From: Parcubacteria group bacterium
GTDB lineage: Bacteria; Patescibacteriota; Patescibacteriia; UBA11705; JABHMO01
NCBI GenBank assembly: GCA_043797615.1
Contig: JAZDPK010000030.1
Coordinates: 9,067-73,066 of the forward strand
Reading direction: 5' to 3'
Length of the DNA stretch: 64,000 bases
In this document: one piece after another, positions 29,735-37,144 of the stretch
Position numbering within the stretch: position 1 is the stretch's first letter
Layout of the letters: every line of letters begins with the position of its first letter
The notes under the pieces: model-generated
Database searches by the model: none
Told to the model about the DNA's origin: nothing
What the model saw: only the letters and a program-made list of their open reading frames with translations
Made by a program: the position numbers and the translations under genes

Positions 29735-30055
29735 TCATAAATCTTCCTTCAATTCAATTCCTTTTTGCACAATTTTTATCTTCTTCACGGGCTTGGCGCT
29801 GAATTTAGCGTTTATCGCTTGGGTCAGGCGCATTTGCTTGAATTTCAGCTCCTGGGCCATAATCGAATTGGCGCAGCCGAACGTTAAAACGCCGCTTTTC
29901 AAATGCAGGGCTTTGGCCAGCTCTTTGGCCTTGTTTCCCCAGAATTCAACGATCTTTTCGTTGGCAAACTCAACCACCATCGCGGCCTGCACCTGGCGGC
30001 CGAGAACGGATTTTTTTTGAAATGAAGTAGTTATTAAGCTGGAAAGTTTGTCCAT
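29735..30055 (-). CDS. DUF721/DciA-like protein
   Basis: 106 aa. The pattern ...W....A.......L..GVL...C.NS..AQEL.F is as remembered for DUF721. Confidence 0.55.
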   Translation of the reverse strand: MDKLSSLITTSFQKKSVLGRQVQAAMVVEFANEKIVEFWGNKAKELAKALHLKSGVLTFGCANSIMAQELKFKQMRLTQAINAKFSAKPVKKIKIVQKGIELKEDL

Positions 30056-30290: not shown

Positions 30291-33200
30291 CTAAATTTTT
30301 TTGTATTCGCAGATATCCTTGTACCCGCAGTACTGGCACACGAACTGGCTCGGGCATGGCGCGAAATTCTGTTTTTTTATTTGTTCGATATTTTCAAGGA
30401 AGCGTTCTTTCAATTTTATCTTGTCGTTTTCCTTCGCGATAAACGGCACGAATTTGTTTTCGTCGAGATAATAATATTTCAAGCTGGCCACCGGCAATTT
30501 CAGAACTTCTTCCGCCGCGATTTGGTAAAAAACCAGCTGGCGCCGATCGTCGGTCGATAATTTTGATTCATCAGGCGCTTTGCCTGTTTTATAATCAATG
30601 ATTTCGACTTTTCCGTTGTCAACGTCGTCGATGCGGTCGATCCGGCCGCTGAAATTGCAATCCCCTATCTTCATGTGAAAAGTCTGTTCTAAAAATTTAA
30701 CCGCCGGCATTGTTTCGCGGAAAGTCTGATGGAAATTTTTCAAATGCTCTTTGCCTTTTTTATAATAATCCTCTTTCTGCGCTTTATTTTCGTACCAATC
30801 GTCGGACCAGCATTCGTCATAAATTTTGTATAAATTTTCAAGCGATAAAATTTCAATGTTCGGTTTTTGTTCTTTGGCGACGAACAAATCCGGCTGGACA
30901 TTGCTCTGGGCGAGCGAACATTGCTCCAAGAATTTTTGCAAAGCGGCGTGAATAACGGATCCGAAGGTTAATTGCGGCCCGCCGAAAGTTTGGATTTTCA
31001 AAATGTTGGCGAACTTGTATTGCAACGGGCAGTTTTCGTACGTCCGCATCTGCGAAAAGCTGAAGCTCTTCGGCAATTCATAGTTGAATTCTTTTTCAAC
31101 GCCTTTTCTTTCCGCGCTCTGCACGCCGTCGAATACGGTCTGATCTTTTTTAACGCACTTTTCATATTCTTCTTTTTTATAACCTAGTTCGGTTAAAAAA
31201 CGCGATAGTTTCTTTTCTCTCGCTCCGCCGTAATTGTCCGCGGATGAGAAATACAATCCGCGCTTCGCCCTTGTCATCGCCACGTAAAAAAGCCGGCGCT
31301 CTTCTTCCAGATGAAAATCTCCTTCCGGAATATTTTCCTTGATCAACGCGTCGGGAATGGAAATCGTTTCCGTCCTTTCATCGGTCGGAAACTTGCGGTC
31401 GACCAGATTCGGAATGAAAACATAAGGATATTCCAGCCCTTTGGCGCTATGGATGGTCATGATTTTTACTGTTTCCGGCCCGGTTTCAAGGTCGAAAATA
31501 AGCCTCCCGCTCTCGCCCGCTTCCTGCTCCAATTTGAACAGCTCCATTAAATCTTTCAGCCGCGGATCGTTCGCATTGGTTTCAAACTGCTGGATCTTTT
31601 TCAAAAACTGATTCAAATAGTCGATTTCCTCGCGCACTTCCCGCTCTTTCTTTTTCTGCACATGCGCCAGATAGCCGGAATTATACATGAAGCTGAGTAA
31701 AATTTCCGACGGCTTTTTCATTTTGGCGATGGCGCTGTCTTTCTCGATTTGAACAATGATTTTGTTCAAAGACGCCAGCGTTTCCGGCGTTATTCCCGGA
31801 ATCGCCGCCGCTTGTTTCACCGCTTCGAACAGCGACATCGTCTTTTCTTTAGCGTAATGCGCCAACTTGGCTGCTTGATCCGGCGCGATATGCAAAAATT
31901 CGAAATTCAAAACGCGGAACACGGCCGAACTCTCGTGATAATTGTCCAGCATTTTAAAGTAATTCAGAATATCCAGGACGATCGGCTTGTTGTAAAGGCC
32001 TTTCATCGCCAGAAATTGATAAGGAATATTCGCTTGCTCGAAAAGATTGATAAAGATGTTGGCGGTGTCGTTCGCGCGCACCAGAATGGCGAAATCGGAC
32101 CAGAGCGCGTTGTTCCGCTTTTGCAATTCAATAATTTTATCAACAACGAATCGGGCTTCGTCCTCGCCGGTCGCTTTGTGAATATGGCTGATGCAGCAAT
32201 TTTCTTTTAAATTTGATTTTAATTTCTTGTCGATGCCGAGCTTCGCTTCTAGGCGGTACGGATTGTTTTGGACGATGAATTTATACGCCAAATCCAGGAT
32301 TTCCTGGCACGAACGGAAATTTTCCGTGAGCACCACTTCTTTCGCTTCGGGAAAATCCTCCTTGAATTGCATGATGTTGCTGATCGACGCGCCGCGGAAT
32401 TTGTAAATGGAATTATGGACCAAAATTCCGTTGGCAACGTAATTGTGAGTGCGGTCGACTTCCAAGTCGTAAACAAAAATAGTTTTCTCTTTTTCTTTTC
32501 TGTCGATAATTTGATCGTAAATTATTCCTTTTTTAGTCACAACGGGCAAAAACATGCCTTTCAACACATTGCTCGTCGGCATCACCAATGCCTTGTTGAC
32601 ATTTGATTTCGCTTTTCCCGCTTTAAGGTAATGTTCAATTATTCCGCCGGTTTCATTTTGAATCTTTTTTGCTATTTTGCCGAGGTATGGAAGGTCAGCG
32701 CTTGCGATGCGTAGCCGCTTGCCGGATTTTTTGGCGTCTTGCATGACAAATCCCATCTTTTTCAATTTATCTATCGTCGGTTTGTGGCTGGTTTCAAGCG
32801 ACAGGCAATGCAAAACCTGCGGCGTTTGCAAAAAAATCCCTTTCGTGTGTTTCGAACGGTAATTGCGCTGGCATAATTCCAGATTAATCTTGATTCTGAC
32901 TTTATCGCCTCGGTTCACGGCGTCAAGACAAAATTGATGCGAATCAAGATCGATGTTAAAATCTTTTGCCAAACGGCGAACGCCTTCTTCAACGTTCAAA
33001 TCCCGATACAGCTTTTCGCTCCATTTTCGTTTGGTCATTATGCCGTCTCTTTCTTGAAAGCAAACGGTCGGAATGCCGTATTTCAGAGACAACAATGTTT
33101 CCATATATCGCGCTTCTTCCTCGTTTTCGCATGATTTTACGGCGACGATTTTATCGGCCGATCTTTCCAGTCTAAGCCGGACAGACAAATCATTGGTAAT

Positions 33201-34403
33201 GCCGAGGCGCCAGCCCAATTCTTGCTTTTGCATCAAGTAAACGTAATAATATTGTTTGTCTTCATGCCCGGAATGAAAATGGTGAAAATATGACACTGGA
33301 TTATAGCAAAACATCTTATGATTGCTTGTCGCCGCAATTTCACGGCCGCTTTTTGTCTTGAATGTGATCAATTTGACCGTTTTTTTATTTTTATTGACGT
33401 GGTTCACTTTGCTGTAGCTCAAATATCCTTTTCCAACTGCGGTGGCGACCTCATTTCCTTTTACTATTTTATCGATTCTGACGTTTCCGTGCTTGGTCAT
33501 AATCAAACTGTCTCCCGGCAAGCATTGGTCGTCGTCCCCGACAACATTGATATTTTTTTTCGGACCGGCCAAAAGTTTGATCAATTCGTATTGCACGAAA
33601 TTCGTGTCCTGAAACTCGTCAACCAAAATATATTTGAACTGCTTGCGGTATTTATTCAGAATAAGCGGCCGCTCTCTCAGCAATTTGACCGCGTACATGA
33701 GCAAATCGCCGAAATCCAGGCTGTCGTTTTCCAACAATATCTGCTGGTAAACATGATAAGCGTTCGCCACTTCGCCAATGCGCATGATTTCCGATTTGAT
33801 CAGCTCTTTCTTTTCCGCTTCGTTAAATTCGCTAAGGTCGAATTGCTTGACAAAGGAAGTCGAATCGGAATTCAATTTTATTTCCTCGGCGTAATCAAGA
33901 TAGCTTTGCGGATAAATCCCCTCGTCTTTGCAGCGGGAAAAATGCTTGAGCAAAGCGTGGATGAATTTCGCCGGATTGCCGATCGGCCGGTAATAATCAA
34001 GATTGAACCGATCCAGATTTTTTCGAACTAAAAGCCAGGCCTCGGTTTCGTCGAGCAGTTTGTAATTGTTCGGCAGGCCGATGTCGATCGCGTGCCTCTT
34101 GATCAATTTGTCGGCAAAGGCGTGGAACGTGGAAACCCACAGATCAACGTAGCCGTAAGGCAGCATAAGATCGATGCGCTCTTCCATTTCCTGCGCCGCC
34201 TTGTCCGTGAACGTCAAAGCCAGCACTTCGTCGACATTCGCATTCTTTTCCGTAATCAGCCAGGCAATGCGCGCCGTAATGACCCGCGTCTTGCCCGTGC
34301 CGGCGCCGGCAACAATAAGCATCGGCCCGTCGCCGTGCATGATGGCGGATTTCTGCTGTTCGTTTGAATCGGAGATAATGCTCATATGAGGATATTTTAG
34401 CAT
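30291..34403 (-). CDS. UvrD/PcrA-family helicase fused to a C-terminal Cas4/AddB-like PD-(D/E)xK Fe-S nuclease; interrupted by an intein
   Basis: Helicase motifs are present: AGAGTGKT, VDEFQDTN and VVGDDDQ|...|SIYKFRGA. The C-terminus has IIDYKTG and four Cys (ENCPLQY ... CPSQFVCQYCGYKDIC). The total is 1370 aa, or 999 aa without the intein. Confidence 0.9.
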   Translation of the reverse strand: MLKYPHMSIISDSNEQQKSAIMHGDGPMLIVAGAGTGKTRVITARIAWLITEKNANVDEVLALTFTDKAAQEMEERIDLMLPYGYVDLWVSTFHAFADKLIKRHAIDIGLPNNYKLLDETEAWLLVRKNLDRFNLDYYRPIGNPAKFIHALLKHFSRCKDEGIYPQSYLDYAEEIKLNSDSTSFVKQFDLSEFNEAEKKELIKSEIMRIGEVANAYHVYQQILLENDSLDFGDLLMYAVKLLRERPLILNKYRKQFKYILVDEFQDTNFVQYELIKLLAGPKKNINVVGDDDQCLPGDSLIMTKHGNVRIDKIVKGNEVATAVGKGYLSYSKVNHVNKNKKTVKLITFKTKSGREIAATSNHKMFCYNPVSYFHHFHSGHEDKQYYYVYLMQKQELGWRLGITNDLSVRLRLERSADKIVAVKSCENEEEARYMETLLSLKYGIPTVCFQERDGIMTKRKWSEKLYRDLNVEEGVRRLAKDFNIDLDSHQFCLDAVNRGDKVRIKINLELCQRNYRSKHTKGIFLQTPQVLHCLSLETSHKPTIDKLKKMGFVMQDAKKSGKRLRIASADLPYLGKIAKKIQNETGGIIEHYLKAGKAKSNVNKALVMPTSNVLKGMFLPVVTKKGIIYDQIIDRKEKEKTIFVYDLEVDRTHNYVANGILVHNSIYKFRGASISNIMQFKEDFPEAKEVVLTENFRSCQEILDLAYKFIVQNNPYRLEAKLGIDKKLKSNLKENCCISHIHKATGEDEARFVVDKIIELQKRNNALWSDFAILVRANDTANIFINLFEQANIPYQFLAMKGLYNKPIVLDILNYFKMLDNYHESSAVFRVLNFEFLHIAPDQAAKLAHYAKEKTMSLFEAVKQAAAIPGITPETLASLNKIIVQIEKDSAIAKMKKPSEILLSFMYNSGYLAHVQKKKEREVREEIDYLNQFLKKIQQFETNANDPRLKDLMELFKLEQEAGESGRLIFDLETGPETVKIMTIHSAKGLEYPYVFIPNLVDRKFPTDERTETISIPDALIKENIPEGDFHLEEERRLFYVAMTRAKRGLYFSSADNYGGAREKKLSRFLTELGYKKEEYEKCVKKDQTVFDGVQSAERKGVEKEFNYELPKSFSFSQMRTYENCPLQYKFANILKIQTFGGPQLTFGSVIHAALQKFLEQCSLAQSNVQPDLFVAKEQKPNIEILSLENLYKIYDECWSDDWYENKAQKEDYYKKGKEHLKNFHQTFRETMPAVKFLEQTFHMKIGDCNFSGRIDRIDDVDNGKVEIIDYKTGKAPDESKLSTDDRRQLVFYQIAAEEVLKLPVASLKYYYLDENKFVPFIAKENDKIKLKERFLENIEQIKKQNFAPCPSQFVCQYCGYKDICEYKKI
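32412..33524 (-). mobile_element. Intein (371 aa) inserted in helicase motif III
   Basis: It begins at Cys294 (CLPGDSLI) and has block B TSNH. It ends VYDLEVDRTHNYVANGILVHN, followed by +1 Ser. The flanking exteins rejoin to VVGDDDQ-SIYKFRGA. Confidence 0.9.
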
Positions 34404-34979: not shown

Positions 34980-36140
34980 TTAAATTGACTCAATCCCCCA
35001 AATTTTACCGCGTCCGGAATTGCCTCTATCATCCACATTGTTTTTCAGCCGCTCGCCGATCATGTCCGCGATCTGCCGCATTTTGCCGGCGTTCAATTTG
35101 CCGTTTTCAAGCAGATAATCTTTTGATTCTTTCAGCGATATTACGCCGGCGGTCGCCGAGCCGAACTTTTCGATTTCATCGGCGCTCCGTTTCACGCTCT
35201 TGCCGTTTGCCGTTTGAAAATCCAAATTGCCGATATAATTTTTTATCTTCTTTTCATATCCTCCCTTTCGGCAAATGTTTTTTATCGCAGTTTGCATTTT
35301 TCCGTTTATAATATCAAACACTTCTCTCGCCTCCTCGCTGTTCAATCCGGGCAAAGTTAAAATGAACTCTTCGCCGCCGGTGGCGCGGATCACCGACGAC
35401 TCAATGCCTGTTTGTTTAATTTTATTTTTTAAATTTTCTGGAATGGAATTTAATTCCTCCTGCATAATGCGGCTCGCGGTCATCAGACTGATATCGCCGA
35501 GCTTATGCCCGCCGGTTTCGTTTATCGCTTTTAAATTATCAAAATCCAACGAAATCATGGCGTAGTCAAAACCTTTCTTGTCGGCCTTGCGCAATTCAGA
35601 CGGAATTATTCCGGACAGATATTCATAATTTTTCGTCAATGTCAGGTTGTCGTAATAGCGGTCGGATTGAAGGCTTCGCATTGTTTTCATTATTTCCTCA
35701 AAACGCTTTTTTTTTGTCGAAACAATCCTCTCTTCCATTTTTTTAAAACTCTTGGCCAATTTGTCGGCAACCAGCGATTCGCCGTTTTGTTCAGCAAAAC
35801 GCATGCGTTCTTGCAATATTTTTTCCAACGCCATTTGCGCCGCATTGCACTCATTCAAGACAAATTCGGTAACTTTTCCATTGTCGCTCGCGTCCATATT
35901 TGCCATTGTGTTTTCGGAAATAACGAATGAATTTCTGGATTTTTTCTTTTGTTTTTCAGTAATAATGTTCGCGGCATCGACGATCCTTCCAAAACGTTTT
36001 TTTTGGTTTTTTAAGATCAAATTACGCCAAAATTCGTTTTTATCCATGTCCGATTTATTTGCAAAATCGTTGATGCTTTTGTAAACCTCTTTGTATGTTT
36101 TTCCTTTCGCATTTTCTTTGAACTTTTGGGCGACCTCCAC
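34980..36140 (-). CDS. GGDEF-domain protein (putative diguanylate cyclase, GGEEF)
   Basis: Contains LDFDNLKAINETGGHKLGD ... RATGGEEFILTL. The N-terminal region is helical and of unknown function. The only canonical start is a GTG. Confidence 0.75.
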   Translation of the reverse strand: MEVAQKFKENAKGKTYKEVYKSINDFANKSDMDKNEFWRNLILKNQKKRFGRIVDAANIITEKQKKKSRNSFVISENTMANMDASDNGKVTEFVLNECNAAQMALEKILQERMRFAEQNGESLVADKLAKSFKKMEERIVSTKKKRFEEIMKTMRSLQSDRYYDNLTLTKNYEYLSGIIPSELRKADKKGFDYAMISLDFDNLKAINETGGHKLGDISLMTASRIMQEELNSIPENLKNKIKQTGIESSVIRATGGEEFILTLPGLNSEEAREVFDIINGKMQTAIKNICRKGGYEKKIKNYIGNLDFQTANGKSVKRSADEIEKFGSATAGVISLKESKDYLLENGKLNAGKMRQIADMIGERLKNNVDDRGNSGRGKIWGIESI

Positions 36141-36283: not shown

Positions 36284-37144
36284 TTAAGGATTTTTTTTCT
36301 TCACCCTCCGCCGTTTGATCGCTTTTTTCAATTCAAGGACAAAATCCGCCGGTTCGATTTCATTGGTAAATTCAAACGCTTTGATTTTCTTCGCTTGCGC
36401 TTTGGCTGATTTGAACTCCGGCTTTTTAATCATTTCCGAATTGAATTCTGACCGATTGCGGCTTTCCGTTAAAATCGCGTTTTCCAGAAAATCAATCGTT
36501 GCGTTCGGTTTGTTCATTTGCGCGTCAAGATCTTTGAAAATTTCGTTCAACGCCTGGTTTATTTTATTTTTTATTTCCAGCGCTTTATCGATAATTTGCT
36601 GCTTGGAAAGCTGCTTTTCAACGAGAATAAAAATTTCTTCGCCGCCGAGGCGCGCGGAAAAGCCGCTATCCTTGGTGCATTCGAGCAAAACCTGCCCGAC
36701 TTTTTGCAAAGCAATATCGCCGAACGTATGGGAAAACTCATTGTAAGCCTTGAAAAAATCAATGTCCATACTGACGACGGAAATTGTTCTTATCTTATCC
36801 GAAGAATTTTCAACGGCTTTGAAATATTCGATTCCTTTTTTAAACAATCCTCTCCGGTTTTCCAAATGCGTCAATCCATCCATGTCCACCGATTCTTCGA
36901 ACCGTTCCAGTAATCCGGCGGCCGCAGTCAATTCATCTTCCGCAAATTCGCCTTTCAAATCGGTTTTCAAAATCTCGGGCAATCGCACTTGCTTAGAAAT
37001 ATCCTGCAATTCATTTTCAATTTTCTTCTTTTTCGCGACAAGCCAGGCGTTTTCCTTGGCCGATAAAAAATCATTCGACCGTTTTCCCTGTTCGCCTGCC
37101 AGAGTTGCCAGCGCCAATATGTTGTTCGCTTCGTTTTTATGCAT
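36284..37144 (-). CDS. GGDEF-domain protein (GGEEIF variant)
   Basis: Contains MDIDFFKAYNEFSHTFGD ... ARLGGEEIFILV. The gene ends in the A8 run ...KKKNP*. Confidence 0.7.
   Translation of the reverse strand: MHKNEANNILALATLAGEQGKRSNDFLSAKENAWLVAKKKKIENELQDISKQVRLPEILKTDLKGEFAEDELTAAAGLLERFEESVDMDGLTHLENRRGLFKKGIEYFKAVENSSDKIRTISVVSMDIDFFKAYNEFSHTFGDIALQKVGQVLLECTKDSGFSARLGGEEIFILVEKQLSKQQIIDKALEIKNKINQALNEIFKDLDAQMNKPNATIDFLENAILTESRNRSEFNSEMIKKPEFKSAKAQAKKIKAFEFTNEIEPADFVLELKKAIKRRRVKKKNP

Follow-up and report, generated by a model that had tools for sequence, protein, structure and literature searches.

A class 1 intein at motif III of a Parcubacteria group helicase with a probable GIY-YIG-derived nested endonuclease

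Introduction

Inteins usually carry LAGLIDADG or, rarely, HNH endonucleases. An intein that displays neither motif interrupts the gene of a UvrD/PcrA-like superfamily 1 (SF1) helicase in a 64,000-nucleotide stretch of DNA from a Parcubacteria group bacterium (assembly GCA_043797615.1, contig JAZDPK010000030.1, positions 9,067 to 73,066 of the forward strand; hereafter the window). This locus raises the question of what kind of nuclease, if any, lies between the splicing halves. An earlier note, made from the letters of the window, had suggested a GIY-YIG-like domain. We find that the insert is a class 1 intein and that the core of its nested region is homologous, at the level of profiles, to GIY-YIG nucleases. 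With a probability of about 0.7 in our estimate, it is a mobile intein dedicated to motif III (GDDDQ↓SIYxFRG, where the arrow marks the junction) of SF1 UvrD-like helicases and carries a nested, two-part homing endonuclease derived from the GIY-YIG superfamily.

GIY-YIG enzymes were not known inside inteins in 2009 (Dassa et al., PMC2677866), and intein nucleases other than LAGLIDADG were still a rarity in a 2025 survey (bioRxiv 10.1101/2025.01.02.630785). A 2025 preprint names GIY-YIG among intein-associated nucleases in passing only, and its references trace to the case of a free-standing gene in a split intein. UvrD inteins were counted in another survey (PMC4760082). Our literature search found no nuclease type assigned to inteins of the UvrD/SPO1 type and no later report of a GIY-YIG domain nested in an intein.

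Results

The insert and its splicing domain

The intein and its parts are located as follows, with residues in intein numbering unless the precursor is named.

32412..33524, minus strand: class 1 intein, 371 amino acids (aa), residues 294-664 of the precursor; Cys1, block B T66-S-N-H69, block F VYDLEVDRTHNYVANG, block G ILVH370-N371, +1 Ser
33300..33524, minus strand: N-terminal half of the Hint (splicing) domain, residues 1-75; matches TIGR01445 and aligns with the Npu DnaB and Pho CDC21 mini-inteins
33075..33260, minus strand: GIY-YIG-like core, residues 89-150; modelled order beta-beta-alpha-beta-alpha, putative active site Y96, (W105)R106, G108, R116, E120, D124, E142
32937..33074, minus strand: conserved loop (YGIPTVCF) and two-helix segment, residues 151-196, joining the core to the C-terminal module; helices of the model at 78-88 and 90-100 in the numbering of the N-terminal-module alignment
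32565..32936, minus strand: basic alpha/beta C-terminal module, residues 197-320; isoelectric point (pI) 10.06, net charge +15
32412..32564, minus strand: C-terminal half of the Hint domain with blocks F and G, residues 321-371; matches TIGR01443 and aligns with mini-inteins of the PDB

The insert is a class 1 intein. It reads CLPGDSLI...ATSNH...NGILVHN, with VVGDDDQ before it and SIYKFRGA after it, and the site is motif III of the helicase. The earlier note had placed a canonical class 1 intein at exactly these coordinates, splitting VVGDDDQ↓SIYKFRGA, and each splicing feature that it named (Cys1 in CLPGDSLI, TSNH, NGILVHN and the following Ser) is present. The curated profiles score well above their cut-offs: Pfam Intein_splicing (PF14890) with E 3e-17 and 63.2 bits (cut-off 35.8), TIGR01445 for the N-terminal splicing region with 46.9 bits (cut-off 24.5) over residues 1-72, and TIGR01443 for the C-terminal splicing region with 37.2 bits (cut-off 15.6) over residues 350-371. 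In a phmmer search of PDB sequences, the splicing halves aligned with the solved mini-inteins Pho CDC21, Npu DnaB and Spl DnaX. The joined flanks of an intein-free allele read GACGACCAA↓TCCATTTAC.

We extracted 105 homologous inteins of 357-374 aa with a search for DDDQ↓C...HN↓S/C junctions, and all were recovered with Cys1, the C-terminal HN and a +1 Ser or Cys. In block B the NHK stretch is at least 95% conserved across the homologues, and the consensus at the Thr position is D. The splicing residues are intact, and all 41 relatives (41/41) have the host gene as a conserved single-copy orthologue; from both we infer that the precursor undergoes protein splicing.

The nested region falls outside the catalogued families

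The nested region of about 230 aa lies between the Hint halves and has two parts, a GIY-YIG-like N-terminal module and a basic C-terminal module. As the earlier note had said, there is no LAGLIDADG or HNH motif in it: intein residues ~76-330 have no Pfam or PHROG match even at E<=10. NCBIfam matches on the intein are confined to the splicing ends, with none in the nested region, and phmmer against PDB sequences, which matched the Hint halves, found nothing there either. Nor did the searches with Pfam, PHROG, NCBIfam and Foldseek put the insert in a LAGLIDADG, HNH or non-nuclease family, an assignment that the earlier note had named as speaking against its own proposal. When a profile of the nested domain was used against PDB sequences, the matches had E values of about 0.9; one of them was the GIY-YIG protein 1zg2 (E 0.88), matched on the GIY..YIG..R stretch.

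A search limited to the nested region recovered 183 proteins. All of the listed ones contain UvrD-helicase domains, and nearly all contain Intein_splicing; the named homologues come from Patescibacteria, Omnitrophota and Margulisiibacteriota. The conserved blocks of the nested region are YVYLM, GWRxGxT, RLxLERSAD, ExEARxxE, SLKYGIPTxCF and a basic NRGxKxRIKI stretch.

Profile comparison links the core to GIY-YIG nucleases

We built a 29-sequence alignment of the whole nested region and a 62-sequence alignment of its N-terminal module. The latter was compared by hhalign with a reference set of 20 proteins from the same genome and its relatives that pass the threshold of PF01541, the Pfam GIY-YIG profile (54-71 bits). 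The two aligned with 94.0% probability (E 1.4e-7) over 52 columns, in the register GIY ... YIG ... R ... E. The same alignment reached 1.1% against the reversed reference and at most 1.5% against 60 column-shuffled versions of it. A broad family of 267 sequences gave 94.8% against the reference, 128 distant members without the clade of the window gave 92.9%, and the broad family gave 95.4% against a merged GIY-YIG reference. Scanned one by one with Pfam, 7 of the 62 members showed PF01541 below threshold (best E 0.039), and one of the 62 showed T5orf172.

The conservation of the putative active site was scored over the 267 sequences. Tyr96 in VYL (the 'GIY' Tyr of strand 1) is 100% conserved and aligned with the invariant Tyr of the reference set, and Gly108, the 'YIG' Gly, is likewise 100% conserved. 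Arg116 in helix 1 (99%) and Glu142, the putative metal-binding Glu of helix 2 (99%), are aligned with the invariant Arg and Glu. The position of the 'YIG' Tyr is occupied by Arg106 (99% Arg), with Trp or Tyr one residue before it, and the invariant His of the reference set, four residues past the Arg, is replaced by Glu120 (99% Glu). Asp124 is 89% conserved. The I-TevI counterparts of these positions are R27 (helix 1 Arg), H31 (the His, Tyr or Lys four residues after it) and E75 (metal-binding Glu). Since Tyr96, Arg106, Arg116, Glu120 and Glu142 are all 99-100% conserved, the pattern is that expected of an active site and not of a relic, and by this sequence criterion the site looks maintained and altered rather than decaying.

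Predicted structure

The AlphaFold2 model of the whole nested region, built from the 29-sequence alignment, has a mean predicted local distance difference test score (pLDDT) of 81 and a predicted template modelling score of 0.76. It displays a unit ordered beta-beta-alpha-beta-alpha and two helices, followed by a beta-rich alpha/beta module. Foldseek found nothing in the PDB at E<=0.001 for the whole region, and the weak neighbours were mixed: LAGLIDADG enzymes (template modelling score, TM, ~0.2), the MotA DNA-binding domain, eIF1, bacterial microcompartment (BMC) shell proteins, the GIY-YIG domain of UvrC (1yd5/1ycz; TMt 0.45, 73 columns, 23% identity) and 1zg2. Because the whole region had no significant match, the N-terminal module was modelled again alone from the 62-sequence alignment (pLDDT 86). 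The beta-beta-alpha-beta-alpha order was kept, and this is the core topology described for GIY-YIG domains (PMC3384342).

The earlier note had proposed a Foldseek comparison of such a model with GIY-YIG folds. GIY-YIG proteins do head the PDB list for the N-terminal module, at ranks 1, 2, 4 and 6 (1zg2, E 0.07; Slx1 structures 7cq4, 4xm5 and 6sei, TMq 0.40-0.44; 1ywl), with none of these matches significant. Against BFVD, the whole region matched a 924-aa viral protein over its full length (TMq 0.63, E 7e-10) and a Siphoviridae '3'-5' DNA helicase'. Further down the BFVD list, at E 0.009-0.2, there is a long run of proteins named GIY-YIG, 'G-I-Y Y-I-G endonuclease', 'intron associated endonuclease' and Mug113. 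The comparison of models points weakly, and consistently, to GIY-YIG. Taken together, profiles and models place the core, most probably, among the YhbQ/Slx1-like GIY-YIG proteins, as a diverged member of that branch of the superfamily.

The C-terminal module has no significant structural or sequence match; Foldseek gave weak matches to the MotA DNA-binding domain, eIF1, the LAGLIDADG saddle and BMC shell proteins. Its basic residues R134, R139, K141 and R149 (numbering of the 29-sequence alignment) are invariant or nearly so (>=90%). Together with the pI and the net charge given above, they fit a role in DNA recognition, and the module is probably a DNA-recognition domain.

In the two-helix segment between the modules, the Pfam E3_binding profile (peripheral subunit-binding domain) matched below threshold in 11 of the 62 members, with a best E of 0.0018. 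The segment may be a small helical element that contacts DNA or protein, or the match may be noise.

A family found in helicase inteins

A profile search of 1.84 billion representative sequences recovered 562 proteins (representative clusters) at E<=0.001 and 196 at E<=1e-10. The earlier note had considered GIY-YIG modules inside inteins to be at best rare; this agrees with the literature (PMC2677866) and not with the sequence data, in which the family extends to these 562 clusters. We scanned nine diverse members, and all nine are UvrD-type helicases or fragments of them with an Intein_splicing match around the domain; none of the nine (0/9) has a Pfam nuclease match on the nested domain. One or both motif III junctions (GDxxQ↓C ... 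HN↓S/C-I/M-Y/F) were recognisable in 125 of 144 listed members, and the inspected members without them are fragments or have variant motif III sequences. In every member inspected, the domain belongs to an intein that splits an SF1 helicase at motif III. A word-based profile search for free-standing small homologues (59-189 aa) returned only fragments of helicase inteins.

Several inteins occur together in some helicases, among them P0212 (1872 aa). P0256 (1210 aa) apparently has two copies of the GIY-YIG-like intein type at two different sites, and P0196 (2433 aa) has three matched stretches. P0158 (1341 aa) has the GIY-YIG-like intein and a separate LAGLIDADG intein near its N-terminus, which Pfam recognises easily.

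Relatives occur in viral helicases of BFVD and in phages. In Bacillus phage SPO1 (NC_011421.1), the annotation of the UvrD-type DNA helicase gp34.33 records an 'apparent intein' of 275 aa from aa 292, and phage CampHawk is reported to have the same intein (PMC3868849). Like the window intein, the SPO1 intein is located at motif III (LVGDDDQ↓C...THN↓SMYSFRGA), has class 1 junction residues and contains an N-terminal nested sub-domain of the same family (52 bits, E 3e-18 with the hidden Markov model of the broad family). It differs from the window intein in length (shorter by about 100 aa), in the absence of most of the basic C-terminal module and in an apparent change at the position equivalent to Glu120. 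Its annotation gives no nuclease type, and its host is a phage, whereas the window intein lies on the chromosome of a bacterium of the candidate phyla radiation (CPR). We also used tblastn against 50,697 phage records: the nested domain of the window had no match, and a phage-like family member had one weak match, in an unannotated record.

In BFVD, part of the nested module matches A0A8S5TZY8 (124 columns, root-mean-square deviation 2.8, 21% identity, E 6e-6), a protein of 782 aa that is named 'adenine specific DNA methyltransferase' and comes from a Myoviridae metagenome phage. From this match, the nested module or its C-terminal part may occur outside helicases.

Distribution, selection and mobility

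Of 101 related genomes, 3 have the nested domain, and the 15 of the same family all lack it. The helicase orthologue is present in all 41 relatives; in 39, including all 15 of the same family, it crosses the junction without interruption, at 48-73% identity. The empty sites read TVVGDDDQ↓SIYKFRGASI, and their first and second codon positions are conserved. This is a sporadic distribution of the homing type, with intein-free alleles that keep the target site.

Other than that of the sister strain, the closest inteins are 60-68% identical to the window intein. The exteins of their hosts are 48-49% identical overall and 56-60% identical in a 340-aa segment around the junction. The intein-free relatives of the family are 57-73% identical in this segment, 13 of the 15 at >=66%, and are mostly closer to the window host than the intein-bearing hosts are. 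In pairwise comparison, intein identity exceeded extein identity by more than 15 points in 250 pairs, and the reverse was seen in 2 pairs. Such a pattern would mark a homing element that is inherited vertically and, in addition, passes horizontally between hosts.

The nested region is under purifying selection. Measured on the single pair formed by the window gene and its nearest relative (P0013, contig L033), the ratio of non-synonymous to synonymous substitution rates (dN/dS) is 0.09 for the nested region (63 synonymous and 31 non-synonymous differences), 0.11 for the whole intein and 0.05-0.08 for the exteins.

The host gene and its surroundings

The remaining features of the host gene are as follows.

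30291..34403, minus strand: host open reading frame (ORF), a 1370-aa precursor without internal stop; UvrD/PcrA-like SF1 helicase with a C-terminal PD-(D/E)XK nuclease (Cas4-like, 4-Cys)
33525..34403, minus strand: N-extein, residues 1-293, ending in the first half of motif III, ...NINVVGDDDQ
30291..32411, minus strand: C-extein, opening with SIYKFRGA, the second half of motif III, and holding the helicase 2A/2B domains and the PD-(D/E)XK nuclease

With the insert removed, the helicase-nuclease has 1000 aa. The host protein matches Pfam UvrD-helicase (3.5e-69), UvrD_C (7e-51), PDDEXK_1 (5.6e-38) and also Cas_Cas4. In the comparison with the insert-free protein, the UvrD-helicase match stops at residue 294 and the PcrA/UvrD NCBIfam matches restart at residue 664. 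The terminal 4-Cys cluster of the Cas4-like nuclease part (30291-32411) is CPSQFVCQYCGYKDIC.

The locus has the context of an ordinary chromosome, with two GGDEF genes upstream and DciA, a class II aminoacyl-tRNA synthetase, MreB and PBP2 downstream. Just upstream of the helicase are the two adjoining genes with GGDEF (diguanylate cyclase) domains (34980-36140 and 36284-37144, minus strand), and directly after it comes the DciA gene (29735-30055, minus strand). The order helicase-DciA is also seen in the sister contig L033, where a GGDEF gene is likewise ahead of the helicase.

The source genome, of a CPR-type bacterium, comprises 1.11 Mb in 73 contigs. Outside the window it has an anaerobic ribonucleotide reductase gene (contig C41:26500-29613; NrdD-like, RLRLDNRELRRRGGSLFG, with a C-terminal CPxC...CPTC) that holds two more inteins. 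These inteins have clear LAGLIDADG-type motifs, LACWIIAEGT/LETYLKADGT and LGYFVGAYAGDGS/LAGHYATDGG, and end in ...ITGN↓C and ...LTHN↓C. Together with the helicase intein, this one genome of 1.1 Mb has at least three inteins of two nuclease types.

The genome also has nine PF01541 matches, eight of them above the Pfam cut-off. These ORFs are mostly small, free-standing, YhbQ-like GIY-YIG proteins of 84-168 aa; three GIY-YIG ORFs lie within 20 kb of contig C8 (C8:33578-33778, C8:37053-37277 and C8:52301-52510), and others are on contigs C17, C22, C28 and C73. The genomes of relatives have 1-11 apiece. Such free-standing YhbQ-like ORFs are a possible source pool for the nuclease module of the intein.

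Discussion

As an intein, the element belongs to a known kind, and annotated inteins at the motif III site already exist. Like the PI-SceI, PI-PfuI and Mtu RecA inteins, it has a Hint domain split after block B by a further module, is sporadically distributed and is inserted in a conserved nucleotide-binding motif of a protein of DNA metabolism. Those inteins have a LAGLIDADG or HNH endonuclease, whereas the module here is of a different, putative nuclease class. In the split inteins of Dassa et al. (PMC2677866), a free-standing GIY-YIG or Vsr-like gene is located between the halves; in the window intein the domain is in frame.

Like the GIY-YIG (URI) nucleases of the YhbQ/UPF0213 and Slx1 types (1zg2, 1ywl, 4xm5, 6sei, 7cq4; PF01541), the intein core has, in its model, the order beta-beta-alpha-beta-alpha, and the strand 1 Tyr, strand 2 Gly, helix 1 Arg and helix 2 Glu are aligned in register. 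Those nucleases are free-standing or fused elsewhere and never nested in a Hint domain. Their YIG position is a Tyr, and a His comes four residues past the Arg; at these two places the intein family has Arg and Glu. It also has the conserved Asp and stays below the Pfam threshold. By analogy with I-TevI, I-BmoI and the T4 Seg proteins, the proposed enzyme would combine a homing role with an N-terminal catalytic domain, a linker and a C-terminal DNA-binding domain. Those are separate ORFs in introns or between genes, and their DNA-binding modules are of the NUMOD, zinc-finger or helix-turn-helix type; the putative intein nuclease is in frame inside the intein and joined to an unrelated basic alpha/beta module.

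Several results weigh against a GIY-YIG nuclease at this locus. PF01541 reaches its threshold in none of the 62 members of the N-terminal-module alignment, the window protein has no match at E<=10, and a six-frame scan of the genome with PF01541 did not match the intein locus. With the N-terminal domains of UvrC from 16 relatives, hhalign gave 0.7-2.7% for the 62-sequence alignment and the broad family, the low-scoring alignment falling in the same register. The positive control, the YhbQ-like reference set against the same UvrC domains, reached only 61%, so hhalign has little power across branches of the superfamily. The layout that the earlier note had read as GIY-YIG, from the string YYYVYLMQKQELGWRLGITNDLSVRLRLE...EEEARYMETLLSLKYGIP at intein residues 92-152, is supported in its register (93-95% in hhalign) and in the order of elements in the model; its YIG Tyr is an Arg, and the UvrC branch that it named is unmatched. 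The structure matches were not significant for the whole region against the PDB, nor for any GIY-YIG structure (E 0.07-3, TM 0.33-0.45). An equivalent of I-TevI Asn90 was not identified in the nested core, and with two catalytic positions substituted as well, the chemistry could differ or be absent. The intein and extein identities correlate (r 0.76); vertical descent, or passage between close relatives, may account for much of the spread. The dN/dS values come from one pair of sequences.

Part of this would also suit a homing nuclease that belongs to a new family and does not descend from GIY-YIG, and we regard that origin as unlikely. The non-significant Foldseek matches, the want of a Pfam, NCBIfam or PHROG match at threshold, the dissimilarity to the UvrC N-terminal profile and a catalytic set of Y/R/R/E/E(+D) in place of Y/Y/R/H/E/N are all consistent with it. 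What it leaves unexplained is the profile-profile probability, high in three overlapping and one independent sub-sample of the family and in the correct motif register, when shuffled profiles stay at or below 1.5%. GIY-YIG is, moreover, the second most recurrent weak Pfam match after E3_binding, and the named structural neighbours are overwhelmingly GIY-YIG proteins. A domain that is derived from GIY-YIG and no longer a nuclease, serving for DNA binding, folding or regulation in a domesticated or immobile intein that, for example, conditions the splicing of the helicase, seems to us about as improbable, or slightly more so. The two replaced catalytic positions, the correlated divergence of inteins and exteins, purifying selection (which would fit a non-nuclease function too) and the shortened 275-aa copy of SPO1 agree with such a loss of activity; but the replaced positions are themselves 99% invariant, as Arg and Glu, alongside the kept Tyr, Arg and Glu, and inteins are more alike than exteins in far more pairs (250) than the opposite (2). 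Of 101 relatives, 98 lack the element, and in 39 of 41 the gene is uninterrupted, which argues that it has no conserved host function in this lineage.

A degenerate LAGLIDADG or other classical homing endonuclease, drifted past the recognition of its motifs, is very improbable, and we rejected it. Its basis is a set of weak whole-domain Foldseek matches to I-OnuI, I-CvuI, I-SmaMI and I-LtrI, with probabilities up to 0.75 over 77-91 columns. These matches, however, have a TM of ~0.2 and E>=0.1 and are confined to the beta-sheet of the C-terminal module, which has no conserved acidic pair and whose invariant residues are basic; no LAGLIDADG or HNH Pfam match appears at E<=10. Real LAGLIDADG motifs are seen in the NrdD inteins of the same genome, and Pfam recognises the LAGLIDADG intein of P0158 without difficulty.

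If the nested region is a GIY-YIG-derived homing endonuclease, the element would work as follows. The Hint domain would excise itself post-translationally by an N-S acyl shift at Cys1, transfer to Ser+1 and cyclisation of Asn371, restoring the 1000-aa helicase-nuclease. The released 371-aa intein would be the carrier of the nested two-part enzyme. Its catalytic module, from the YhbQ/Slx1-like branch, would keep Tyr96, Arg116 and Glu142, the last binding the metal, with Arg106 and Glu120 standing in for the YIG Tyr and the His, and a short helical segment would tether this module to the highly basic DNA-recognition module, in a layout like that of I-TevI. The nuclease would cut intein-less alleles near the conserved coding sequence of motif III, and recombinational repair from an intein-bearing copy would spread the element. 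Here we infer the nuclease activity, the target site and the geometry of cleavage from sequence.

The nested module is uncatalogued and widespread, and is probably an endonuclease of GIY-YIG descent that has a non-canonical catalytic set and is paired with a novel basic domain. We lean, at slightly better than even odds, towards a broader view: that these elements form a large undescribed class of contiguous inteins with an active in-frame GIY-YIG-derived enzyme whose centre is re-wired (Tyr, Arg-x-Gly, Arg-x3-Glu, Glu) and whose DNA-recognition module has a new fold, the class being dedicated to motif III and moving among CPR bacteria, other phyla and phages. It would be the third class of in-frame intein nuclease after LAGLIDADG and HNH. 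Should the nuclease be inactive, the finding shrinks to an improvement of annotation. If the widespread module is of the GIY-YIG type, inteins would have captured this class of nuclease too, in support of the view that the splicing domain came first and a free-standing nuclease invaded later, and the UvrD inteins left unannotated beyond 'intein' would be explained. The intein would then provide a compact, monomeric nuclease that excises itself naturally and whose active site is unusual in having Arg for Tyr and Glu for His; this could inform the mechanism of GIY-YIG enzymes and nuclease engineering, and the element would be a marker of gene flow among CPR bacteria and their phages.

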